The notes under the pieces were generated by a model that did no database searches, was not told the origin of the DNA, and worked only from the letters and a program-made list of their open reading frames with translations. Below, one piece after another: positions 1-55,116 of a stretch of DNA of 64,000 nucleotides. The DNA is from Escherichia coli. Lineage in GTDB: Bacteria > Pseudomonadota > Gammaproteobacteria > Enterobacterales > Enterobacteriaceae. The stretch lies in NCBI RefSeq assembly GCF_029227855.1, contig NZ_CP074356.1. One strand, written 5' to 3'. Position 1 is the stretch's first letter. Every line of letters begins with the position of its first letter. The translations under genes and the position numbers were made by a program.

Positions 1-2135
1 GCCCGTTCCCAGTGCGGTTCGCTGTAGGTGCGTTTAATCAAATGCTGAGCAACTGGCTCCACCCATTCTGGATCGATGCGTGCCGCAATGCGCCCCCACA
101 GGCGGCTGGTTTCTACCAGTTCCGCCACCATTACCCATTTCGGCGGCTTTTTAAATAAGCCGGAACCGGGGAAAATGGAGAAACGCGCGTTACGTGCGCC
201 GGTATATTCTTGTTTATCGGCATCTTTCATGCCGATATGGGAAAGCAAACCCGTCAGCAACGCAATGTGAATTTCGCGATATTCCGCCGGTTCGCTGTTA
301 ACCGGAATGCCAAGTTCTTTCACCACCTGGCGCAACTGGGTGTAGATATCCTGCCATTCGCGCACGCGCAGATAGTTGAGATAATCGGTACAACACAGGC
401 GACGGAAGGCGTTGGAAGAAAGAGCCTTTTGCTGCTCGCCAAGATAATTCCACAGATTCACAAACGCGAGGAAGTCAGACTCTTTGTCGTGGAAGCGACA
501 ATGTTTTTCGTCCGATGCCTGCTGTTTGTCCATCGGTCGTTCGCGCGGATCCTGGATGGAGAGCGCGGACGTGATAATCATCGCCTCACGCACGCAGCCA
601 TGTTTTTGCGCTTCCAGCACCATACGCGCCAGACGAGGATCGACAGGCAACTGCGAGAGCTGGCGACCGAGCGGCGTCAGTTTATAGGCGCTGGCCTGTT
701 CATCCGTGGTGATCGCGCCCAGCTCTTCGAGCAGACGCACGCCATCCTGGATATTACGTTTATCCGGTGCTTCGACAAATGGGAACGCGGCGATATCGCC
801 CAACCCCAGCGCGGTCATCTGTAAAATAACCGAGGCCAGGTTGGTACGCAGAATCTCCGGATCGGTAAACTCCGGGCGCGAGAGGAAATCGTCTTCGGAA
901 TAGAGACGAATACAGATCCCTTCGGACACACGACCACAGCGGCCTTTACGCTGGTTGGCAGACGCCTGCGAAATGGGCTCAATCGGCAAACGCTGCACTT
1001 TGGTGCGATAGCTGTAGCGGCTGATACGCGCCGTACCTGGGTCGATAACGTATTTAATCCCCGGTACGGTCAGCGACGTTTCCGCGACGTTGGTCGCCAG
1101 CACAATGCGCCGTCCACTGTGCGACTGGAACACGCGGTTCTGTTCGCTGTTCGAAAGCCGCGCATAAAGCGGCAAGATTTCGGTATGGCGTAAGTTCAGC
1201 TTGTTCAGCGCATCGGCGGTATCGCGAATTTCCCGCTCACCGCTCATAAAGATCAGAATGTCGCCGGGACTTTCCTGGCTCAGTTCGTCTACGGCGTCAA
1301 AAATCGCCTGCAACTGATCGCGCTCGGTATCATCGGCTTCTTCAACAATCGGGCGATAGCGCACTTCCACCGGATAGGTCCGGCCGGAGACTTCGATAAT
1401 CGGCGCATTATTAAAGTGGCGCGAAAAGCGTTCCGGGTCGATAGTCGCGGAAGTGATAATGATTTTTAGGTCAGGACGTCGCGGCAGCAACTCTTTCAAA
1501 TAGCCGAGCAGAAAATCGATATTCAGGCTGCGTTCGTGCGCTTCGTCAATAATGATAGTGTCGTACTGCATCAGCAGGCGGTCTTGCTGGATCTCCGCCA
1601 GCAGGATACCGTCGGTCATCAGCTTGACCATCGTATTATCACTTACGTGATCGCTGAAACGCACTTTGTAACCGATGCAACCGCCCGGCTCAGTTTTCAG
1701 CTCTTCCGCAATACGGTTGGCCACCGTTCGTGCCGCCAGACGACGCGGCTGGGTATGACCGATCAGCCCTTTAATCCCGCGCCCCAGCTCCATACAGATT
1801 TTCGGTAGCTGAGTCGTTTTACCGGAACCGGTTTCCCCGGCGACGATCACCACCTGGTGATCACGAATCGCTTCGAGAATGTCCTGCTTTTTCTGACTAA
1901 CCGGTAAATTGTCAGGATAAGTAATTTCCGGACGTGCCGCTTCACGCAGCAGGACTTTCCCTGCCGCCTGGTCAATCTCTTTCGCCATCTCCTGGAAAAT
2001 GGCCTGTTGTGCATCAGGATTTTTAACCTTCTTCACACCGTGAAGACGGCGTAAAAAACGCTGTCTGTCGCGCAGCATCAGCGAATCCAGCCGCTGCTGC
2101 AAGGCCGTAAAGGTCAATTTTTGTTGTTCTGTCAT
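1..2135 (-). CDS. hrpA: ATP-dependent RNA helicase HrpA, N-terminal part (about 711 codons; gene continues beyond window start)
   Basis: Reverse-strand ATG at 2133-2135 translates MTEQQKLTFTAL...; no minus-strand stop-delimited ORF is reported between 1 and 2135, consistent with one open frame running off the window. Confidence 0.88.
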   Translation of the reverse strand, partial: MTEQQKLTFTALQQRLDSLMLRDRQRFLRRLHGVKKVKNPDAQQAIFQEMAKEIDQAAGKVLLREAARPEITYPDNLPVSQKKQDILEAIRDHQVVIVAGETGSGKTTQLPKICMELGRGIKGLIGHTQPRRLAARTVANRIAEELKTEPGGCIGYKVRFSDHVSDNTMVKLMTDGILLAEIQQDRLLMQYDTIIIDEAHERSLNIDFLLGYLKELLPRRPDLKIIITSATIDPERFSRHFNNAPIIEVSGRTYPVEVRYRPIVEEADDTERDQLQAIFDAVDELSQESPGDILIFMSGEREIRDTADALNKLNLRHTEILPLYARLSNSEQNRVFQSHSGRRIVLATNVAETSLTVPGIKYVIDPGTARISRYSYRTKVQRLPIEPISQASANQRKGRCGRVSEGICIRLYSEDDFLSRPEFTDPEILRTNLASVILQMTALGLGDIAAFPFVEAPDKRNIQDGVRLLEELGAITTDEQASAYKLTPLGRQLSQLPVDPRLARMVLEAQKHGCVREAMIITSALSIQDPRERPMDKQQASDEKHCRFHDKESDFLAFVNLWNYLGEQQKALSSNAFRRLCCTDYLNYLRVREWQDIYTQLRQVVKELGIPVNSEPAEYREIHIALLTGLLSHIGMKDADKQEYTGARNARFSIFPGSGLFKKPPKWVMVAELVETSRLWGRIAARIDPEWVEPVAQHLIKRTYSEPHWER

Positions 2136-2326
2136 AACGTTAGTGGGCAGTAGTCTGCCTGATTAATTTTCTTTTAAATGATAGATATAGAGTACCACAT
2201 CGCGGCTTTCTATGCGTTGTTCAATAAATTCGAACATAGGCTTCGATTTATTGCGCTATCTCTGTGGCAGGATTGTGAATAAAGTGTCAACAAGCAACGG
2301 GGCATCGCCCATTCAAACATCTATAA

Positions 2327-2941
<615 letters not shown>

Positions 2942-2954
2942 CCGGACACGATCT

Positions 2955-2984
2955 TGATGTGGACTGTAGATATTCAGTCCACAT
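2955..2984. terminator. 11-bp perfect inverted repeat between convergent azoR and ynbD (likely bidirectional terminator)
   Basis: gatgtggactg-tagatatt-cagtccacatc seen directly between the two stop codons. Confidence 0.5.
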
Positions 2985-2994
2985 CTCAATCCGC

Positions 2995-6049
<3,055 letters not shown>

Positions 6050-6064
6050 TTTCTCTATTTTCCT

Positions 6065-6961
6065 TCAGTAACAGCAGTAGCGAATAAAATAAAAAAATAC
6101 CGGAGCGGTGAAAATTAATGAGTCAATCCTGTCAAGGAGTCCGCCATGTCCTGGTAATAGTTTTCCACTATCTTTAACACCAATATCTCGTTTGATGGCT
6201 GACATCACTACATCGCCGCAAAAACCACTAATACCAATTAACAAACCCGCTAATAATGCCTGTAATGTATCTAGCGGTGTCAGCAACGGTCCAATAATCA
6301 GTGACGCAATCATGGTGGTGATTACGCCGCCCATCAGACCTTCCAATGTTTTTCCCGGGCTGACTTTAGGGACCACTTTTCTTCTGCCGCAGGATTTTCC
6401 CCATAAATACTGTGCAATATCGTTTGACTCGGTTAATGCCAAAAGAAATAACACCAGTAACGCCCCGCCCTGGATATTTGTGGTTGGCAACATTAATAAC
6501 CAGGCGGCATGACTCAAGGCGAAAACGGTCATTATCCAGCCACAAAAAATGGCGCTCACGGTATGCAGAAAACCGGAGGGGTCACCCACTAAAACTCGCC
6601 AGGTGGCTAATATCAGAAACCCAGCCAAAGGTATAAATAACAGAAACAGCTCAAAGCAATTAAAACCGATAAGCAAATAGTTAAGAGGAATACCCCAATA
6701 TAACCAACGCGGAAAATGTACAGATATAAGCGTACAATATTCTTTCAATGCCAGAAAACTTATCAGCGCAAAAAACGTCAACGTCATCCAGCGTGGACCT
6801 GAAATCACCATTGAAAAACAAATGACGATGCCCCACCAAGTACGAATACGTAATGTAACTTCATCCCCTTTTCTCTCCGGTAACCGCCATACCAGAAAAC
6901 GGTTTATCAGCGTTGCTAAAATTAACAACGCGAAAAGTGTTGCCAGAGATTTTTCCAGCAT
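6065..6961 (-). CDS. ynbB: CDP-diglyceride synthetase (CdsA)-family integral membrane protein
   Basis: 298-aa polytopic membrane ORF; start ATG overlaps ynbA stop (ATGA). Confidence 0.85.
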   Translation of the reverse strand: MLEKSLATLFALLILATLINRFLVWRLPERKGDEVTLRIRTWWGIVICFSMVISGPRWMTLTFFALISFLALKEYCTLISVHFPRWLYWGIPLNYLLIGFNCFELFLLFIPLAGFLILATWRVLVGDPSGFLHTVSAIFCGWIMTVFALSHAAWLLMLPTTNIQGGALLVLFLLALTESNDIAQYLWGKSCGRRKVVPKVSPGKTLEGLMGGVITTMIASLIIGPLLTPLDTLQALLAGLLIGISGFCGDVVMSAIKRDIGVKDSGKLLPGHGGLLDRIDSLIFTAPVFFYFIRYCCY

Positions 6962-7572
6962 TATCTTTCAGCGCTCATAAGAAGCACACTCCGACAACGA
7001 TTAATCGCAGTCCAGAGAAGCAGAATTGAAGCAATGCTCCATAAAAGATTATTCCATTGCATCCATTGTGGATAAATGGCAATGGCCAGACCCCACAGAC
7101 CAAATATTAACGCGCGATCGCTTTTGCCAAATGGACCGACATAACTACGAATACCGTTAATCGTCTGCGCGAGTAAACCGCAAAACTCGGTCAATATGGT
7201 GCAAAATAACATGATTATCACGAGTGATGCGTTACTTTCCGGTAAAAATAAAAACGGTAAATAGAGCGCAATATCGGAAATAACATCGCCAGTCTCATTC
7301 AAAATCGCCCCAAGACGTGTTTGCTGATTGCACTCACGCGCCAACATGCCATCCAGCGCATTGAGTGCCATACGAATAAAAAGCACAATGGGCAATAGCA
7401 AAAAGAGGATGGGTTGTGCCACCAACATCAACAGCAATCCGCTAAGAAGAGAAAGTGCCAGTGCAGCAAGAGTGATGTGATTCGCTGTAACATGGTGCTT
7501 ATTAAGCCAAAACATCGTCGGCCTTAACAGCGACTGAAAGAGCGGTTTTATCTGGTAGAGCGTCATTATCAA
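6961..7572 (-). CDS. ynbA: CDP-alcohol phosphatidyltransferase-family membrane protein
   Basis: 203-aa hydrophobic ORF, first gene of the ynbABCD operon. Confidence 0.85.
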   Translation of the reverse strand: MIMTLYQIKPLFQSLLRPTMFWLNKHHVTANHITLAALALSLLSGLLLMLVAQPILFLLLPIVLFIRMALNALDGMLARECNQQTRLGAILNETGDVISDIALYLPFLFLPESNASLVIIMLFCTILTEFCGLLAQTINGIRSYVGPFGKSDRALIFGLWGLAIAIYPQWMQWNNLLWSIASILLLWTAINRCRSVLLMSAER

Positions 7573-7734
7573 TCCTTGATAATTCTGTTTGCGCTATGGT
7601 GCATCAATTGCCCTGACAGAGATATCGCAACACGCCGCTTCAATAAAAATTCAGAATATATCAAGGTATTGGGGCTCACTGTCAGGAATGATTATCCACA
7701 ATTAATCAAATAGTTAAAAATATTACGCTGTTAT

Positions 7735-10047
7735 TCAATGCAACTCATCAAGTTTTCTCATCGCTTGTTCCCGTATTGCGCGCGTCTTATCGTTAAGCGC
7801 CAGCTGCCGAACTAAATCCAGTTCAGGGTTAACAAGCTCTAACGCCAGCAAAGGATCACGTTTCAGCCTCGCCTTTAATACATCAACTGGAAAACGGGGA
7901 TTATTCATCGCCACAATCCACCACTCGGGATCAATTTCTGCCGCCAGTACTGCAGGCGGTGTGTGGCGGTTGTTAAGTGCGCCGAACTTGAAAAATGTGA
8001 GATTGCTTTTCGCCAGTGTACTCCACCATATACGATCCGGTTGTTTTGCCAGTTTATCCAGTTGTGCTAACGCATCGGGGTCTAGTGCATAATAAACACG
8101 TAACGCTTCGTTAACCTGCGCACGGGAACTGTTTTCCTGCCTCAGAAAAAACTTCGCCCAAATATCATTGCGTGGCGTGTTTTGCTGTAATTCCTTGAGA
8201 ACAACAGCGGGTAAATTATCCCAACTAATTAATGCACTCTCTAAAAAGTCCCAGTCGTCCGAACGTATCAGAGAGGTGGCATTTAATAGCATCTGGTCAT
8301 CAACTTCACCGTAGCTGATAAGCTCAGACAAAATCATATCAGCGCTGGTTTCATATGCATCTGAATCTGCTTTGGGATTATTTTTCCGATGCGATAAAGC
8401 ACGTTGCCAAATTTTTTGTTTCATCGACGTGCTCAGATACTGATTTTTCGCCAAATTACTCCACCCCTCAGGATCGTTGAAACGTGTCAATAACCGTTGT
8501 AAAGCAGCGTCAGAGTGAATTACCTGCATATCCCGACAGCAAAAGTAGGCAGGGGATTTTTTCTCCATCTTTTTAACAAAATTAAACTGTAAGTTATCTG
8601 GCAATGCTAAAAATAACACACGTATTAGATCATCGTCATTCTCGAATTTTTGGTATAAATATACTGCTATTTTGTCACTCTCTTGTGGCGTCATCCGCAA
8701 CAATTGACCATGGTGTTTCATCTCTGCCAGCTTTGACGCTAAGCTTGTGACAACATCGTTTGATGAATCGTTCGCCAACTGCATTGCCTGATTGTAGGTG
8801 AGTTGTCCTCCAGCACCGACCTGACGAATAGAGAAATCATCACTGCGGATATAGCCATCAATAATGGATTCGGGCAATAACCACGCATCTTTATAAAGCT
8901 CCTGAATGATCATATCCCAATCTCTTTTCGCCAGAGTCATGACGATATCCAGAGGGAGATTTTCACGTAGCGCAAGATTCAACGGACCGACACCATCAGG
9001 TAGATGACTCATTCGCGTCATTATTTCGACAGAGAGCGGTTCACGGTCGAGCAACCCCAGAACAACAGGCTGGTAACCCAATTGCTGATCGGTCAACTCC
9101 AGAATCTCATTGTCAGGCATATATCTCGCCATACTTGCAATCGTTTGTCCATCATTGCTATTAATAAGTTGTTTGCGTAGGTTAGCTGAAATTCCTTTAA
9201 GCCTTGGGAGAGTTCGCATTATGGCAAGATCAAATGTCGCAATGTCTCGTCCTTCAAATGCAGCAACGTTGCCTTCATCCAGCATTTGTAATTCCTGCAC
9301 TAATTCAGGTGAAGGCTTAGGGCGAAACAGCGCTTCTTTTTTCATCTGATTACAGACATTCCCTGCTATGCGAATATTGCTTCGCTTAAAAATTTCTTTC
9401 AGAGCATCTTCATCATTTATTAGGCCCCAATAATATGCATCAGGATTTATTATCGTCAGCGCTTTTTTGACATTTTCAGTGTCATTTTTGTCACTCGCAC
9501 GGACCATGAATTCACTATTTGTCGAAGACGCAACAACAGGTGCGATTATATCATTGATAAATATCCCGCGCGCATTAATACTCCCCTTAATCGTAGACGG
9601 ATTATCGTAATATGAGTCGATAAATACCAGTCCACTTGCATTTATCGAACCGGTAATTAACAGTGGTGAATCCGTAACTATATTCGTTGCCGTCACGTTA
9701 CCGAGAATAACCCATGGATTAGAAAGAGAGAAAGTGGAAATATTACCTTTGACTGTCAAATTGCCAAGAACAATCAATTTTTGATTACTCTCTATATTAC
9801 CTTCTACCACTAAATCGCCACGATGCACTTTCCAGTCCGATGCAGATAAACCGAAGGGGACAAGATTCACGCTACTGTTGATAGCTTGTTCAACTTGTTG
9901 TTTATCTTCAGCGGTAGCCGCAGAAAAAAATGGTTCAATATCAACTGCATTTGCAACACATCGAAGTTCCGCCTGTACTGGAAGACTCAGCATAAACAGG
10001 GGAAGTAAACCTATCCAGCTGCAAATCCTGGGCTTAAACATATGCAC
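7735..10047 (-). CDS. ydbD: Uncharacterised protein YdbD with N-terminal signal peptide
   Basis: 770-aa ORF with signal-peptide-like N-terminus (MHMFKPRICSWIGLLPLFMLSLPVQA); position next to ydbC. Confidence 0.85.
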   Translation of the reverse strand: MHMFKPRICSWIGLLPLFMLSLPVQAELRCVANAVDIEPFFSAATAEDKQQVEQAINSSVNLVPFGLSASDWKVHRGDLVVEGNIESNQKLIVLGNLTVKGNISTFSLSNPWVILGNVTATNIVTDSPLLITGSINASGLVFIDSYYDNPSTIKGSINARGIFINDIIAPVVASSTNSEFMVRASDKNDTENVKKALTIINPDAYYWGLINDEDALKEIFKRSNIRIAGNVCNQMKKEALFRPKPSPELVQELQMLDEGNVAAFEGRDIATFDLAIMRTLPRLKGISANLRKQLINSNDGQTIASMARYMPDNEILELTDQQLGYQPVVLGLLDREPLSVEIMTRMSHLPDGVGPLNLALRENLPLDIVMTLAKRDWDMIIQELYKDAWLLPESIIDGYIRSDDFSIRQVGAGGQLTYNQAMQLANDSSNDVVTSLASKLAEMKHHGQLLRMTPQESDKIAVYLYQKFENDDDLIRVLFLALPDNLQFNFVKKMEKKSPAYFCCRDMQVIHSDAALQRLLTRFNDPEGWSNLAKNQYLSTSMKQKIWQRALSHRKNNPKADSDAYETSADMILSELISYGEVDDQMLLNATSLIRSDDWDFLESALISWDNLPAVVLKELQQNTPRNDIWAKFFLRQENSSRAQVNEALRVYYALDPDALAQLDKLAKQPDRIWWSTLAKSNLTFFKFGALNNRHTPPAVLAAEIDPEWWIVAMNNPRFPVDVLKARLKRDPLLALELVNPELDLVRQLALNDKTRAIREQAMRKLDELH

Positions 10048-10104
10048 TCCATGCCATTAAAAAAGAAACAAAAGGGAAATGCATCTTTCCCTTTTGTATA
10101 TTCG

Positions 10105-10965
10105 TTATTCTCGCGATATACCATCCAACGTAGACAACACTTCCTCAGAAAGATGCAATTTTTCAGCAGCCATATTCTCCCGTAAATGCGCAACAGAAGA
10201 CGTCCCTGGGATCAGCAAAATATTCGGTGAACGTTGTAACAGCCACGCCAGCGCCACCTGCATGGGTGTTGCACCCAGGCTCGCAGCAACATCCGACAGC
10301 GTAGAGGATTGCAGCGGTGTAAAGCCCCCGAGCGGGAAGAACGGCACGTAAGCAATGCCATCGTGGGCCAAAGCATCAATCATTGCATCATCAGCACGGT
10401 GCGCGATGTTGTATTCGTTTTGCACACAGACAATTTCGGCAATCTTGCGCGCCTCTGCAACCTGCGTCGGTGTGACGTTGCTCAGGCCAATATGTTTTAC
10501 CAGGCCTTGTTGTTGCATCTCTGCCAGCACGGTCAGGCTGGCCTCAATCGATCCTTCCGCTGGGCCATGACCATCCCCCATCATAACGCGCAGGTTAACC
10601 ACATCCAGTACGTCCAGGCCGAGATTACGTAGATTATCGTGCACCGCTTTTTGCAACTCTGCCGGAGAACAGGCGGGCAACCAGGAAGCGTCCTCTCCAC
10701 GCCGCGCACCAATTTTAGTGACAATTGTCAGGTCGTCAGAGTAAGGATAAAGCGCTTCGCGGATAATCTGATTGGTGACGTGCGGACCATAAAAGTCGCT
10801 GGTATCAATGTGATTGACGCCCAATGCCAGCGCCTCGCGCAGTACAGTTATAGCGACGTGGCGATCTCTTGGGGGGCCAAAAACCCCAGGACCTGCCAGT
10901 TGCATCGCGCCATAACCAAGACGGTTAACGGATTTTGTACCGAGAGTAAATGTATTGCTGCTCAT
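10105..10965 (-). CDS. ydbC: Aldo-keto reductase family oxidoreductase
   Basis: 286-aa ORF, AKR fold (GYGAMQLAG... HIDTSDFYG). Confidence 0.88.
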   Translation of the reverse strand: MSSNTFTLGTKSVNRLGYGAMQLAGPGVFGPPRDRHVAITVLREALALGVNHIDTSDFYGPHVTNQIIREALYPYSDDLTIVTKIGARRGEDASWLPACSPAELQKAVHDNLRNLGLDVLDVVNLRVMMGDGHGPAEGSIEASLTVLAEMQQQGLVKHIGLSNVTPTQVAEARKIAEIVCVQNEYNIAHRADDAMIDALAHDGIAYVPFFPLGGFTPLQSSTLSDVAASLGATPMQVALAWLLQRSPNILLIPGTSSVAHLRENMAAEKLHLSEEVLSTLDGISRE

Positions 10966-11131
10966 CGCACCCTGCCCTGTAATAAAACGGATTGAGAAAA
11001 ATCAGTATAGAAACGAAAAGAGATAAATAATGCGAAGGCGTAAACAAGATTACTGGATGAGTTGCTCTATTGTCCTGAAAGACACCAAAACAAAACGCGT
11101 AAAGCGCCGCATTCGGCAATAAAATAAATAT

Positions 11132-11155
11132 CCTCCGGCATAGCCGGAGGTTTTT
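11132..11155. terminator. GC-rich hairpin plus T-run between ydbC upstream region and the IS element
   Basis: cctccggc-ata-gccggagg followed by ttttt on the plus strand. Confidence 0.45.
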
Positions 11156-11159
11156 CAAA

Positions 11160-11880
11160 TGCGCCTATAAGGCTCTCTTACCAGCCGCGCCCTAACAGGC
11201 GCACACGATCTGACATTTGCATCCAACTTCGTTACTTACGGCCCGTAAACGGGCTGCCCGGATAGGGAATCGATAACTGCTCTCCCATTTTATCCTCTTC
11301 AAGCTGGTGCTTTATGTAATCCTGTATCTTCGCCGTGTTCTTACCCACCGTATCGACGTAGTACCCTCTGCACCAGAACTCCCTGTTCCTGTATTTGAAT
11401 TTCAAATCACCAAACTGCTCGTAAAGCATCAGACTGCTTTTCCCTTTCAGATATCCCATAAAGCCGGATACGCTCATTTTGGGCGGGATCTCCACAAGCA
11501 TATGGATATGATCTGCACAGCATTCAGCTTCCAGAATCCGTACACTTTTCCACTCACACAGCTTTCTCAAAATACTGCCTATTGCTCTACGCTTCTCTCT
11601 GTAGAACACCTGTCTTCGGTATTTTGGCGCAAAAACTATGTGATATTTACAGTTCCATCGGGTGTGCGCTAAGCTCTTTTCGTTCCCCATTGGGACCCCC
11701 TTTTGATTTCTTGTTTGACACTTGCAGTTGCCAGACCGCAAGGTGTTTTAACAAATCAAAAGGGGTTTTAATAACTGGCTTAAAGCTGAAAGCTTTCCGG
11801 AACCCCCAGCCTAGCTGGGGGTTTTCTGTGCACAAAAAACCGCAACCTGTATCAGCGTTGCGGTTTAGGTATCACATGCT
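11160..11880 (-). mobile_element. IS200-like insertion sequence (IS200/IS605 family); boundaries approximate
   Basis: Single Y1/HuH transposase gene flanked by short non-coding arms with stem-loops (cccccagc-ctag-gctggggg at 11805-11823; aaccgcaac...gttgcggtt at 11840-11866); about 0.7 kb, as expected for IS200; ends not mapped. Confidence 0.7.
11232..11690 (-). CDS. tnpA: IS200/IS605-family transposase TnpA (Y1 HuH)
   Basis: MGNEKSLAHTRWNCKYHIVFAPKYRR...HIHMLVEIPP (HuH motif)...; ATG at 11688-11690 preceded by aaaggggg RBS; the 169-aa track ORF has a spurious N-terminal extension. Confidence 0.9.
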   Translation of the reverse strand: MGNEKSLAHTRWNCKYHIVFAPKYRRQVFYREKRRAIGSILRKLCEWKSVRILEAECCADHIHMLVEIPPKMSVSGFMGYLKGKSSLMLYEQFGDLKFKYRNREFWCRGYYVDTVGKNTAKIQDYIKHQLEEDKMGEQLSIPYPGSPFTGRK

Positions 11881-41941: not shown

Positions 41942-42877
41942 ATGTCGCAAAATCAAGAAATTAGTAAGAAAGAACAATACAACCTGAACAAATTACAAAA
42001 ACGTCTGCGTCGTAACGTGGGCGAAGCCATTGCTGACTTCAATATGATTGAAGAAGGCGATCGCATCATGGTTTGCCTCTCCGGGGGTAAAGATAGCTAT
42101 ACCATGCTGGAAATTCTGCGCAATTTGCAGCAAAGCGCGCCAATCAATTTTTCGCTGGTGGCTGTCAACCTCGATCAAAAACAACCGGGCTTCCCGGAAC
42201 ACGTTCTGCCCGAGTATCTTGAAAAGCTGGGCGTTGAGTACAAGATTGTGGAAGAGAACACTTACGGTATCGTGAAAGAGAAGATTCCGGAGGGCAAAAC
42301 CACTTGCTCACTGTGTTCTCGTCTTCGTCGCGGAATTCTTTACCGTACCGCAACGGAACTGGGAGCGACGAAGATCGCGCTGGGTCACCATCGTGACGAT
42401 ATCCTGCAAACGTTGTTCTTAAATATGTTCTACGGCGGCAAGATGAAAGGTATGCCTCCGAAACTGATGAGCGATGATGGCAAACATATCGTGATTCGCC
42501 CGCTGGCCTACTGCCGCGAGAAAGATATTCAGCGCTTTGCCGATGCAAAAGCGTTCCCGATTATTCCGTGCAACCTGTGCGGTTCACAGCCTAACCTGCA
42601 ACGTCAGGTGATTGCTGACATGTTGCGTGACTGGGATAAACGTTATCCGGGGCGTATCGAGACGATGTTCAGCGCGATGCAGAATGTGGTGCCGTCGCAT
42701 CTGTGCGATACCAACCTGTTCGATTTCAAAGGCATTACCCACGGTTCTGAAGTGGTTAACGGGGGTGATCTGGCGTTTGATCGCGAAGAGATCCCTCTAC
42801 AACCGGCGGGTTGGCAGCCTGAAGAAGATGAAAATCAGTTGGATGAGTTACGGCTGAATGTGGTTGAAGTGAAATAA
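41942..42877 (+). CDS. ttcA: tRNA 2-thiocytidine(32) synthetase
   Basis: 311-aa ORF with PP-loop SGGKDS. Confidence 0.9.
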
Positions 42878-43005: not shown

Positions 43006-44379
43006 TTATTTTAATAACCGCACCCGGCACGTTTTTCCTTTAATCTTCCCGCCCTGTAACTGTTTCCATGCTTTATGAGCAACAGCCTGACGCACCGCGA
43101 TATAGACATGCGCCGGATGCACGGCGATTTTGCCAATATCTGCGCCATCAAGCCCAATATCTCCTGTCAGCGCACCTAATACATCACCCGGGCGCATTTT
43201 GGCTTTTTTCCCGCCATCGATACATAACGTTGCCATTTCGGCTTCCAGCGGCACAATGGAACTATTAACTGGCGGCGTTTGCCAGTTAAGTTTTATCTGC
43301 AACATGTCAGAAATGATATTGGCCCGCTGTGCTTCTTCCGGGGCACAGAAACTGATCGCCAGACCGCTATTTCCTGCACGCGCTGTACGACCGATGCGAT
43401 GTACATGAACTTCAGGGTCCCACGCCAGCTCAAAGTTCACCACCAGCTCAAGCGATTTAATATCCAGACCTCGCGCAGCAACATCAGTCGCAACCAGTAC
43501 ACGGGCGCTACCGTTAGCAAAACGTACCAGGGTCTGATCGCGATCACGTTGCTCCAGATCGCCGTGTAACGACATTGCACTTTGCCCTACTTCATTCAGC
43601 GCGTCGCAGACAGCCTGGCAATCTTTTTTGGTATTGCAAAACACCACGCAAGAGGATGGCTGATGCAAACTTAATAACCGTTGCAACAGAGGAATTTTGC
43701 CTTTGCTGGATGTCTCATAAAATTGTTGTTCAATAGGTGGCAGAGCATCTGTTGAGTCAATTTCAATCGCTAAAGGATCGCGTTGCACTCGTCCGCTGAT
43801 TGCGGCGATGGCTTCCGGCCAGGTTGCCGAAAACAGAAGCGTCTGTCGAGATGCTGGCGCAAAACGGATGACATCATCAATAGCGTCGCTAAATCCCATA
43901 TCCAGCATGCGGTCGGCCTCATCCATCACCAGCGTATTCAACGCATCCAGTGATACCGTGCCTTTTTGCAGATGATCCAACAAACGGCCCGGCGTTGCCA
44001 CGATAATATGCGGCGCATGTTGCAACGAATCACGCTGCATACCGAACGGTTGACCACCGCACAACGTCAAAATTTTGGTATTTGGCAGAAAACGCGCCAG
44101 CCGACGCAATTCACCTGCCACCTGATCCGCCAGTTCACGCGTAGGACACAGCACTAAAGCCTGGGTTTGAAATAGCGACGCATCAATTTGCTGTAACAAG
44201 CCGAGGCCAAAAGCCGCCGTTTTGCCGCTGCCGGTTTTCGCCTGCACGCGAACATCTTTTCCGGCAAGGATCGCCGGAAGCGCGGCGGCCTGCACCGGCG
44301 TCATGGTTAAATAACCCAACTCATTAAGGTTCGTGAGTTGGGCGGGAGGCAAAACATTCAGGGTAGAAAAAGCGGTCAC
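43006..44379 (-). CDS. dbpA: ATP-dependent DEAD-box RNA helicase (23S rRNA-dependent)
   Basis: 457-aa ORF with AKTGSGKT Walker A and DEAD box; GTG start giving MTAFSTLNVLPP. Confidence 0.92.
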   Translation of the reverse strand: MTAFSTLNVLPPAQLTNLNELGYLTMTPVQAAALPAILAGKDVRVQAKTGSGKTAAFGLGLLQQIDASLFQTQALVLCPTRELADQVAGELRRLARFLPNTKILTLCGGQPFGMQRDSLQHAPHIIVATPGRLLDHLQKGTVSLDALNTLVMDEADRMLDMGFSDAIDDVIRFAPASRQTLLFSATWPEAIAAISGRVQRDPLAIEIDSTDALPPIEQQFYETSSKGKIPLLQRLLSLHQPSSCVVFCNTKKDCQAVCDALNEVGQSAMSLHGDLEQRDRDQTLVRFANGSARVLVATDVAARGLDIKSLELVVNFELAWDPEVHVHRIGRTARAGNSGLAISFCAPEEAQRANIISDMLQIKLNWQTPPVNSSIVPLEAEMATLCIDGGKKAKMRPGDVLGALTGDIGLDGADIGKIAVHPAHVYIAVRQAVAHKAWKQLQGGKIKGKTCRVRLLK

Positions 44380-44408
44380 AATCTATTCTCGTGGTCATCG
44401 ACGCAAAG

Positions 44409-44582
44409 TTAGCAGGCGCGTATCCTCGCAGATCTACGCTCACGATGCGACAATTTAATCGGTTCTTCATCGGGTGGTGGGTCAGGCATGGGTTGCGGAC
44501 GAGGGATCGGATCGGGCACTGGAACAGGATCGCCAGGAATCGGTTCAGGGACAGGAATTTGCAAATAAATAAGTGTCGTCAT
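44409..44582 (-). CDS. Candidate small proline-rich ORF (57 aa) just upstream of dbpA; hypothetical
   Basis: ATG at 44580-44582 with ggaggg RBS 4-5 nt upstream; translation MTTLIYLQIPVPEPIPGDPVPVPDPIPRPQPMPDPPPDEEPIKLSHRERRSARIRAC; below the 60-aa cutoff of the ORF track. Confidence 0.35.
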   Translation of the reverse strand: MTTLIYLQIPVPEPIPGDPVPVPDPIPRPQPMPDPPPDEEPIKLSHRERRSARIRAC

Positions 44583-44639
44583 ATTTCCCTCCGGTCATTG
44601 GGTGGACTCTTAAAGGGTAGACGCTGATAAATAACAGGC

Positions 44640-44761
44640 AAAAAAAAGCCGACTCATCAAAGTCGGCGTCGTACGAATCAATTGTGCTATGCAGTAATTC
44701 AAAAAAGGAAGTAAGACAATATGGAGCGCAACGCCCATCGCTTGACGTTGCATTCACCTGC
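44640..44761 (-). ncRNA. fnrS: FnrS small regulatory RNA
   Basis: Minus strand reads GCAGGTGAATGCAACGTCAAGCGATGGGCG... ending in hairpin gccgactttgatgagtcggc plus T8; recognised from memory. Confidence 0.7.
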
Positions 44762-44796
44762 AAGAGAGATATTGCCCTGAATGGGTAGAGAGTTTA

Positions 44797-44810
44797 TTGA
44801 CTTCGCTCAA
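44797..44810. promoter_or_regulatory. FNR-type box (TTGAC-N4-CTCAA) centred about 42 bp upstream of the fnrS 5' end
   Basis: ttgacttcgctcaa matches the FNR TTGAT-N4-ATCAA consensus at class II spacing. Confidence 0.6.
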
Positions 44811-44856
44811 ACTTTACGGCGTTTTTGTATACAGACCGCCGGAAAAATTGCTTTTG

Positions 44857-45861
<1,005 letters not shown>

Positions 45862-46094
45862 TTATTTTGTAGTCTAGCCTTCTGGCCCTGTTACGCAACA
45901 TCTCATCACCCCATTACCCTGAAATGATTAATAAAATTCTGTCTAAATTGAATACAAAAAGCAAAATGCTTTTCCGTATACAAATCGTGTGAAGTGTTAA
46001 ATAGCGTCTATCATTATCAGAATTATCTGATCATATGACGTGGCTTTTTTGCGATCGGATAGCAACAAAAATTGATAAAAATAACGGGATCTCA

Positions 46095-48138: not shown

Positions 48139-48233
48139 ACCGGCACAGAGGAGACCAGGCCGGATTTAAGACGAGGATGCACTGCTGTGTGTACTGTAGA
48201 GTCTGGCGGATGTCGACAGGCTCTATTTTTTTA
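48139..48233 (+). ncRNA. mcaS: McaS (IsrA) small regulatory RNA
   Basis: ACCGGCACAGAGGAGACCAGGCCGGATTTAAGACG...GTCGACAGGCTCTATTTTTTT between smrA and abgR; recognised from memory. Confidence 0.6.
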
Positions 48234-48240
48234 TGCAGTT

Positions 48241-54330: not shown

Positions 54331-54344
54331 TTGACAAATATCAA
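54331..54344. promoter_or_regulatory. FNR box at the fnr promoter (autoregulation site)
   Basis: ttgacaaatatcaa, near-perfect TTGAT-N4-ATCAA dyad 20 bp upstream of the fnr start codon. Confidence 0.65.
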
Positions 54345-54363
54345 TTACGGCTTGAGCAGACCT

Positions 54364-55116
54364 ATGATCCCGGAAAAGCGAATTATACGGCGCATTCAGT
54401 CTGGCGGTTGTGCTATCCATTGCCAGGATTGCAGCATCAGCCAGCTTTGCATCCCGTTCACACTCAACGAACATGAGCTTGATCAGCTTGATAATATCAT
54501 TGAGCGGAAGAAGCCTATTCAGAAAGGCCAGACGCTGTTTAAGGCTGGTGATGAACTTAAATCGCTTTATGCCATCCGCTCCGGTACGATTAAAAGTTAT
54601 ACCATCACTGAGCAAGGCGACGAGCAAATTACTGGTTTCCATTTAGCAGGCGATCTGGTGGGATTTGACGCTATCGGCAGCGGTCATCACCCGAGCTTCG
54701 CGCAGGCGCTGGAAACCTCGATGGTATGTGAAATCCCGTTCGAAACGCTGGACGATTTGTCTGGTAAAATGCCGAATCTGCGTCAGCAGATGATGCGTCT
54801 GATGAGCGGTGAAATCAAAGGCGATCAGGACATGATCCTGCTGTTGTCGAAGAAAAATGCCGAGGAACGTCTGGCTGCATTCATCTACAACCTGTCCCGT
54901 CGTTTTGCCCAACGCGGCTTCTCCCCTCGTGAATTCCGCCTGACGATGACTCGTGGCGATATCGGTAACTATCTGGGCCTGACGGTAGAAACCATCAGCC
55001 GTCTGCTGGGTCGCTTCCAGAAAAGCGGTATGCTGGCAGTCAAAGGTAAATACATCACCATCGAAAATAACGATGCGCTGGCCCAGCTTGCTGGTCATAC
55101 GCGTAACGTTGCCTGA
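54364..55116 (+). CDS. fnr: Global anaerobic regulator FNR (CRP/FNR family, 4Fe-4S)
   Basis: 250 aa from [29 protein letters not shown] (N-terminal Cys cluster); C-terminal HTH. Confidence 0.95.

Follow-up and report, generated by a model that had tools for sequence, protein, structure and literature searches.

The FNR-activated promoters of class II, exemplified by narK, nrfA and ydhY, do without a -35 hexamer, have a modest -10 element and carry their FNR site at -41.5 +/- 4 (Myers, 2013). For the promoter of the small RNA gene fnrS in Escherichia coli K-12, the same study gives as the FNR site a sequence identical to the one described here, with a PatSer score and a ChIP-seq peak at -42.5, and reports that sigma-70 occupancy at fnrS goes from 54 to 11803 without oxygen. 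The site had earlier been found to be bound by FNR in both ChIP-chip and EMSA experiments (Grainger et al., 2007), where it was credited to "dbpA", fnrS being then undiscovered. As described in the passages on FnrS in Myers (2013), citing Durand and Storz (2010) and Boysen et al. (2010), the K-12 RNA, of the same sequence as ours, accumulates anaerobically in an FNR-dependent manner and represses its targets in an Hfq-dependent manner. A precedent of another kind is offered by ChiZ-chiP and IspZ-ispU, in which the sRNA comes from the 5' part of an mRNA and expression of the gene behind it depends on terminator read-through (Adams et al., 2021); these systems resemble the present one in that the terminator of an sRNA lies upstream of a co-directional gene.

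Here we describe the corresponding locus in what we call the window, the whole 64,000-nucleotide stretch of E. coli DNA that was analysed, which runs in the reverse of the K-12 orientation (Table 1). We propose that fnrS and ynaL, the latter with dbpA behind it, form two separate transcription units, one directly after the other, and that dbpA lies outside FNR control, a reading that we hold to be highly probable. The region itself is an ordinary E. coli locus, with the gene order zntB - fnrS - ynaL - dbpA on the minus strand. Over the 601 bases around fnrS, identity is 100% with an O169:H41 isolate and 99.3% with K-12, and the same 601-base stretch is present in 5392 of 5426 complete genomes. 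From the FNR box onwards to the promoter-like motifs that lie behind the fnrS terminator, the window and K-12 are completely identical; the four SNPs found in 481 nt all fall outside fnrS and the FNR box, of which two precede the box, one affects the Shine-Dalgarno sequence of ynaL and one is a synonymous change within ynaL. The original prediction had placed FnrS at these positions, with an FNR box about 42 bp upstream in class II geometry, fnr about 10 kb away, and the fnrS terminator about 60 bp ahead of a small ORF that shares its strand with fnrS and dbpA. These placements are borne out, with measured distances of 9.6 kb from fnr to fnrS and 57 nt from the end of the terminator to the ynaL ATG. 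The product of ttcA, a gene that becomes relevant in other species, was also confirmed in the window with an NCBIfam model.

Table 1. Features of the fnrS region and of the fnr gene, with positions in the 64-kb window; an arrow marks features given in their direction of transcription.
Feature	Position	Strand	Basis or remark
fnr gene with its own FNR box	54331..55116 (CDS 54364-55116)	+	NCBIfam NF008365 Fnr, 529.9 bits
FNR box upstream of fnr, TTGACAAATATCAA	54331-54344	+	consensus scan; just 5' of the fnr CDS
zntB (zinc transporter) CDS	44857..45840	-	ORF; NCBIfam NF007092 ZntB, 645 bits
FNR binding site TTGAGCGAAGTCAA (plus-strand string ttgacttcgctcaa)	44810->44797	-	centre at -42.5, class II position
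Probable fnrS -10 hexamer CAATAT, -13 to -8	44774->44769	-	sequence; probable assignment
fnrS small RNA, 122 nt, 5' end G at 44761	44640..44761	-	Rfam RF01796; 100% identical to K-12
fnrS intrinsic terminator/Hfq-binding module, hairpin GCCGACTT-TGAT-GAGTCGGC (44667->44648) and U8 (44647->44640)	44640..44667	-	
TTGCCT, -35-like hexamer of a putative promoter for ynaL	44641->44636	-	its TT is also the end of the fnrS U-tract
-10-like element TCTACCCTTTA (TACCCT 44619->44614, C at -13)	44611..44621	-	sigma-S-like; putative function
ynaL, Shine-Dalgarno GGAGGG (44592->44587) and CDS (44582->44409)	44409..44592	-	57 aa, proline-rich
Conserved nucleotide-level block upstream of dbpA (CCGATTAAATTGTCGCATCG ... 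AGATCTGCGAGGATACGCGCCTGCT)	44411..44462	-	overlaps the ynaL 3' end
dbpA (DEAD-box RNA helicase) CDS, GTG start at 44379	43006..44379	-	ORF; NCBIfam NF008744 DbpA, 768 bits

The small RNA is identified without difficulty. The Rfam covariance model RF01796 (frnS/FnrS) matches the minus strand from 44761 to 44644 over model positions 1-119 of 119, with a score of 134.8 bits (gathering score 60; E = 4.4e-24), and with the U-tail the RNA reaches from 44761 to 44640. It lies directly downstream of zntB (alias ydaN), as is usual for the family, and ends in a rho-independent terminator with a long U-tail, the family's Hfq-binding 3' module. Compared with K-12 FnrS there is no difference of substance: the FNR box, promoter, RNA and terminator are 100% identical, the site sits at the same -42.5, and the flanking genes are zntB, ynaL and dbpA in both. 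We conclude that this locus is FnrS itself and not a mere look-alike. For comparison across species, one genome per species was scanned with a pattern drawn from the conserved fnrS core, which returned 120 loci; two chance matches and one truncated locus were left out, giving 117 species-level loci, all from the Enterobacterales. The spacing to the upstream gene is nearly constant in this set, with zntB ending near -99 from the fnrS +1 in nearly all of the 117; in the window 96 nt separate the zntB stop from the start of fnrS.

The FNR box is centred on the junction of 44803 and 44804, at -42.5 when counted from the 5' G that the Rfam model defines. All eight core bases (TTGA/TCAA) are present in TTGAGCGAAGTCAA, which matches TTGAT-N4-ATCAA at 8 of 10 positions overall. 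Within the 64-kb window such a match is common: the consensus TTGATNNNNATCAA, with two mismatches allowed, is found 47 times against 39 expected, and the exact core TTGA-N6-TCAA four times against 1.7 expected, a count of four being reached in 12 of 100 shuffles. By window counts alone, the box is statistically unremarkable and occurs at about chance frequency. We take it to be real because of its position and its conservation across species, not because of those counts: in 115 of the 117 Enterobacterales species a YTGN-N6-TCAA sequence is found upstream of fnrS no more than 2 nt away from the -42.5 register, and at 112 of the 117 loci the right half-site TCAA keeps its register exactly. As in other class II FNR promoters, a TTGA-N6-TCAA inverted repeat centred at -42.5 is found where no -35 element exists, the FNR site sitting in its place, and the position is the same as that of the ydhY site in Table 1 of Myers (2013). 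The columns of GCAATAT at the fnrS -10 are 60-90% conserved over the 117 species. The fnrS promoter differs from its class in two respects, its half-sites deviating at the fifth position (TTGAG...GTCAA as against TTGAT/ATCAA) and its product being a non-coding RNA. The box in front of fnr, in reverse complement, is likewise tabulated for that gene by Myers (2013). All of this, that is fnrS, its FNR promoter and the position of the box, is already known, having been published for the identical K-12 sequence.

The terminator at the 3' end of fnrS, as given by a terminator scan and a minimum free energy fold, consists of an 8-bp stem with five G-C pairs, a 4-nt loop and a run of eight U. Its hairpin has a predicted free energy of -12.7 kcal/mol, with a median of -11.5 kcal/mol over the 117 species, and the U-run is 8 or 9 long in 98 of the 117 and 7-9 in 115. 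In Hfq-dependent sRNAs the U-tail is the Hfq-binding 3' end. The fnrS terminator is thus canonical, strong and conserved. We note that it is no weaker where a co-directional gene follows: across the species loci, in a comparison uncorrected for phylogeny, the hairpin energy is -11.5 kcal/mol with ynaL downstream and -11.2 kcal/mol without it (p = 0.68), with the U-run slightly longer, if anything, at loci that have ynaL (8.2 vs 7.7). Since hairpin stability is equal with or without ynaL, there is no sign of selection for leakiness.

Immediately beyond this terminator lies what appears to be a conserved promoter belonging to ynaL. When the stretch from the terminator to the ynaL ATG was aligned in 62 species, a variable spacer was seen to contain conserved islands, namely the terminator itself, TTGCC at the end of the U-tract, CTAnnCTTTAA, GGAG and the ATG. 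The TTGCC columns are at least 80-90% conserved, and those of CTAnnCT at least 90%, against 20-60% in the adjoining spacer; the columns of at least 90% conservation include C-13, T-12, A-11, C-8 and T-7, which are the key bases of a -10 element together with the sigma-S-specific C-13 and C-8. In 35 species exactly 16 nt separate TTGCCT from the TAnnCT hexamer that follows it, and the distance from this -10-like hexamer to the ATG is 25-34 nt in 58 of the 62. A start site would be predicted near 44607-44608 in the window, at about 1,409,282-3 in K-12 U00096.3. At one Pantoea locus (L035), a promoter scan calls TTGCCA-18-TATGCT, a 9/12 match to the sigma-70 consensus and the only promoter-like site in 500 nt, at precisely the conserved position, and other loci of Pantoea and Erwinia have a TTGCCA-like hexamer at the matching place in the alignment. 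The motifs also go with the gene: GCC follows the U-tract at 45 of 61 loci with ynaL and at 12 of 47 without, and CTAnnCTT is present at 44 of 61 and 5 of 47, respectively, which indicates that the promoter-like motifs track ynaL and not fnrS. In Kluyvera, where ynaL is deleted and dbpA comes directly next, the CTACC element is retained.

As to the sigma factor, the signature points to sigma-S/sigma-70 as the probable reader of this putative promoter. The element TCTACCCTTTA agrees at 9 of 11 positions with KCTAYRCTTAA, which is given as the sigma-S extended -10 consensus (Weber et al., 2005, as quoted in PMC5650638); in most Enterobacteriaceae the agreement rises to 10/11, and some species reach 11/11. 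With sigma-S promoters of the extended -10 type it shares the C at -13 and the C at -8, and it differs from them at -9, where the E. coli motif carries a C in place of the consensus purine. Matches of 9/11 are about as frequent within the 64-kb window as chance would give, and this one is not significant alone. A promoter scan of 44200-45000 called no sigma-70-like promoter, TTGCCT/TACCCT being a weak match to sigma-70, and the parts of the Cappable-seq, SMRT-Cappable-seq and Adams 2021 Term-seq tables that were searched hold no match to a ynaL start site or promoter; one supplementary file of the RpoS ChIP-seq study of Peano (2015) has no entry for dbpA/b1343.

The small ORF had been put forward as a candidate leader of dbpA. 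It is indeed a gene, ynaL: its RefSeq annotation reads "proline-rich small protein YnaL", it matches Pfam PF23677 with 136.9 bits, and a report on SPA-tagged YnaL in K-12 records the protein in LB in both exponential and stationary phase. A 19-codon core compared across 52 species gives 0.108 pairwise differences per site at the first codon position, 0.082 at the second and 0.598 at the third; ynaL is, by this codon pattern, a real protein gene with a core under purifying selection. The other half of the suggestion, that it simply serves as a leader for dbpA, does not stand. Counted from the fnrS 5' end, the start of a YnaL-like proline-rich ORF with a strong Shine-Dalgarno sequence falls between +172 and +190 in nearly all of the 62 species, and ynaL is kept in Pantoea, Erwinia, Pluralibacter, Cedecea, Mixta, Siccibacter and Trabulsiella, where dbpA is missing from the locus. 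Because ynaL accompanies fnrS even in genomes of this kind, it is not simply a dbpA leader, and we judge from gene order that it is linked in evolution to fnrS and not to dbpA. This linkage, independent of dbpA, is new and argues against a plain dbpA leader peptide. We found one paper that discusses ynaL.

The neighborhood of fnrS on its downstream side varies between species. The next known gene after fnrS could be scored in 107 informative species: it is dbpA, on the same strand, in 35; ttcA, convergent, in 60 (in three of them more than 1.5 kb away); ttcA, on the same strand, in six; and zntB, convergent, in six, these being Rahnella and Rouxiella. The order fnrS to dbpA, found in only 35 of the 107, is therefore a later, clade-restricted state.

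Evidence on dbpA expression comes from the literature. In Grainger et al. (2007) the "dbpA" fragment was fused to lacZ in pRW50 and assayed in anaerobic LB-glucose in the wild type and an fnr deletion. The primers map to window positions 45000->44979 and 44377-44400, and the resulting fragment, 45000->44377, takes in the zntB 3' end, the FNR box, fnrS, its terminator, ynaL and the dbpA start codon. Because it spans everything from the FNR box to the start of dbpA, this fusion is in effect the read-through experiment; according to the verbal description in the paper, anaerobic activity was low and the effect of the fnr deletion marginal. Table 2 of the same paper enters "No" for dbpA under identification by the transcriptome study of Constantinidou et al. 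(2006), and dbpA/b1343 is absent from 15 supplementary files of Myers (2013), which is weak negative evidence. RNA-seq data exist for Shigella flexneri M90T, a close relative and not the strain of the window, and there dbpA falls 3.6-fold when oxygen is absent (anaerobic/aerobic log2FC -1.86), and neither RNA-seq nor FRT-seq shows a significant effect of fnr; rhlE and deaD drop alongside dbpA. The tagged YnaL mentioned above also bears on this point: if the LB cultures were aerated, as we assume, YnaL was made while the fnrS promoter was essentially off. It is in these respects that the locus departs from ChiZ-chiP and IspZ-ispU. Unlike the downstream genes of those systems, the one here has what looks like a conserved promoter element of its own, is expressed with the sRNA promoter off (again assuming aerobic LB), and is not co-regulated with the sRNA. 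Of the three defining marks of a read-through operon, then, none is seen: a leaky or conditional terminator is lacking, the downstream gene appears to have a promoter of its own, and published data show no anaerobic, FNR-dependent co-regulation with the sRNA.

The alternative raised by the original prediction is that polymerases activated by FNR at fnrS partly pass the terminator and so induce ynaL and dbpA without oxygen. The layout lends itself to the idea, in that the genes share a strand, the gap to ynaL is short and no further terminator precedes dbpA; the fnrS promoter is extremely active anaerobically, by the sigma-70 ChIP values quoted at the outset; and intrinsic terminators are seldom 100% efficient. 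However, the terminator is strong, canonical and not weakened before co-directional genes, a conserved promoter-like block stands behind it, the whole-region lacZ fusion is described as low and marginally fnr-dependent under anaerobiosis, and dbpA is outside the FNR regulons of Constantinidou (2006) and Myers (2013) as far as the material from those studies extends. The anaerobic change of dbpA in Shigella is moreover a decrease and FNR-independent, and the requisite gene order is confined to a third or so of the informative species, most of the others having a convergent ttcA. We consider a read-through link very unlikely and already largely refuted; it was the sole new element in what had been predicted, and the outcome was negative both in what was in effect its test in 2007 and again by RNA-seq. 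Given the great strength of the induced fnrS promoter, even read-through of 1-2% could give a few transcripts; a residual leak of a percent or two is without detectable regulatory consequence in the available data. Coupling might also arise without read-through, if heavy anaerobic transcription of fnrS occluded the ynaL promoter, a negative coupling, or if polymerase terminated at fnrS were handed on to it for re-initiation, a positive one. TTGCCT does share two T with the U-tract, at a 16-nt spacing fixed in 35 species, and dbpA is lower anaerobically in Shigella, as occlusion predicts. Yet that decrease is not relieved in the fnr mutant, where fnrS transcription should be lost, and the parallel fall of rhlE and deaD suggests a general effect of ribosome biogenesis or growth; the lacZ fusion, as described, changes marginally with or without fnr, and the Pantoea and Erwinia loci have their -35-like hexamer apart from the U-tract, which means that the overlap is no conserved requirement. 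To coupling of this sort we attach the least credence, and regard it as extremely improbable.

One might also doubt that the conserved block is a promoter at all. CTAnnCTTTAA and TTGCC could be a protein-binding site or an RNA element, with transcription of ynaL arriving through the terminator from zntB or fnrS; the 96-nt gap between zntB and fnrS contains no convincing terminator for zntB, the scan of the region called nothing sigma-70-like, and the ynaL start site rests on prediction. On the other hand, the two motifs are spaced as in a promoter, 16-18 nt apart, and their distance from the ATG is constrained, the conserved bases are T-12, A-11 and T-7 of a -10 element plus the C-13 and C-8 specific to sigma-S, the Pantoea match to sigma-70 falls at this very place, and transcripts from upstream would still face a strong terminator. 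This explanation seems to us highly improbable. Rather less improbable, though still unlikely, is the notion that fnrS and ynaL make up an old two-gene module, coupled functionally or mechanistically, in which the ynaL promoter was built onto the fnrS terminator. If that were true, the arrangement would have been kept in the Enterobacteriaceae and Erwiniaceae by the coupling and not just as inherited gene order, and the coupling itself would consist either in polymerase hand-off or occlusion at the overlap of terminator and promoter, or in a shared physiological role.

Under the reading that we prefer, that of two independent units back to back, events at the locus would run as follows. Without oxygen, FNR bound to its site at -42.5 would activate the class II fnrS promoter, as the literature on the identical sequence indicates. 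The resulting 122-nt RNA would stop at the strong intrinsic terminator, with the U8 tail doubling as the Hfq-binding end, and transcription from the fnrS promoter would end there with no measurable feed into dbpA. Right after the terminator a second unit would begin, with TTGCCT, 16 nt and TCTACCCTTTA as its putative promoter, which would drive ynaL and, in genomes that have dbpA at this place, probably dbpA too. What is new here at the level of annotation is this candidate sigma-S-like ynaL promoter set on the fnrS terminator, and a conserved block upstream of dbpA.

The latter block came out of the alignment of the 35 dbpA-linked species. It encodes the dbpA-linked tail of YnaL: with dbpA at the locus the protein ends in ...DEEPIKLSHRxRRSARIRAC, in place of ...DPDPHPIIDPPPH. 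The possibility that the block mimics the 23S rRNA target of DbpA (the helix 92 region), as a means of autoregulation, was considered and rejected, a local alignment to a 342-nt 23S segment scoring 14 against a shuffle mean of 15.8; RNAalifold detected no conserved RNA structure in it over the 35 species (-3.8 kcal/mol). The block is nevertheless conserved at the nucleotide level, being retained both where the ynaL frame stops earlier and where, as in Kluyvera, ynaL has been deleted.

In some 62-69 species of the Enterobacteriaceae and Erwiniaceae (fnrS loci L002-L121, one genome per species), a proline-rich ORF resembling ynaL, the 57-aa reading frame between fnrS and dbpA, starts 50-68 nt 3' of the fnrS terminator. 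These ORFs share the core DPxPxPDPIPRPQPxPDPP and are found at fnrS both with and without dbpA downstream; the fnrS loci of Yersinia, Serratia, Pectobacterium, Dickeya, Edwardsiella, Rahnella and others in the same set lack them. The YnaL C-terminus reads ...DPDPHPIIDPPPH where dbpA is absent, whereas it reads ...DEEPIKLSHRxRRSARIRAC where dbpA is present.

Upstream of dbpA, the block CCGATTAAATTGTCGCATCG ... AGATCTGCGAGGATACGCGCCTGCT hardly varies in nucleotide sequence across an alignment of 35 loci, and it is kept both where the ynaL frame ends earlier and in Kluyvera, where ynaL is deleted. We found neither a conserved RNA structure for this block in that alignment nor similarity to the helix-92 region of 23S rRNA, and it may act as a promoter or operator specific to dbpA.

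In E. coli E69 (L095, CP089930.1), ynaL (+180..+320) has lost one of its repeated PxP units through an in-frame 33-nt deletion, leaving 46 aa as against 57. In the Kluyvera spp. (L037, L081, L106) most of ynaL is gone, and the start of dbpA lies at +236 to +239, just ~115 nt past the fnrS terminator; these loci keep the CTACC(C/T) motif together with the dbpA-proximal conserved block. The ynaL Shine-Dalgarno sequence carries a SNP at window position 44591, with A in K-12 (AGAGGG) as opposed to G in the window (GGAGGG), and GGAGG is the form of most other species in the alignment of the ynaL upstream region.

On the other side of fnrS, the zntB stop lies at about -99 relative to fnrS +1 in nearly all species. 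In the gap, 5' of the FNR box, an AAAAC block at about -64 to -60 is 70-90% conserved across 117 species. This block could be an UP-like element, the site of another regulator (an IHF ChIP-chip signal is flagged at fnrS in Myers 2013) or a part of zntB 3'-end formation. No convincing intrinsic terminator for zntB was found in the 96 nt before fnrS, which include window 44811-44856 (-) between zntB and the FNR box; the gap offers only a 5-bp stem closing a 15-nt loop, with a poor T-run. The zntB transcripts may pass through the fnrS promoter to end at the fnrS terminator.

Two more FNR boxes in the window match ChIP-validated K-12 sites (Myers 2013), and the coordinates of all these features are collected in the table.

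Features of the window (window coordinates)
Feature	Position	Strand	Remark
FNR box TTGACAAATATCAA	54331-54344	+	directly 5' of fnr start codon
FNR box TTGATCTAAATTAA	41242-41255	+	reverse complement of uspF site in Myers 2013
AAAAC block	44820-44826	-	
ynaL	44409-44582	-	
CCGATTAAATTGTCGCATCG ... AGATCTGCGAGGATACGCGCCTGCT block	44411-44462	-	
STnc490	11700-11823	-	Rfam, 146 bits
McaS/IsrA	48139-48234	+	Rfam, 111.6 bits
MicC	39847->39732		Rfam, 105.7 bits
ttcA	41942-42877		
YnaN ORF	~45850-45900	-	expected position; L001 500-547 in K-12

MicC and ttcA lie only ~2 kb apart in the window. In K-12 the two are separated by the Rac prophage, which, given this short distance, the window's strain seems to lack. 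For K-12, RefSeq has YnaN, an ORF of 15 codons, directly 5' of zntB.
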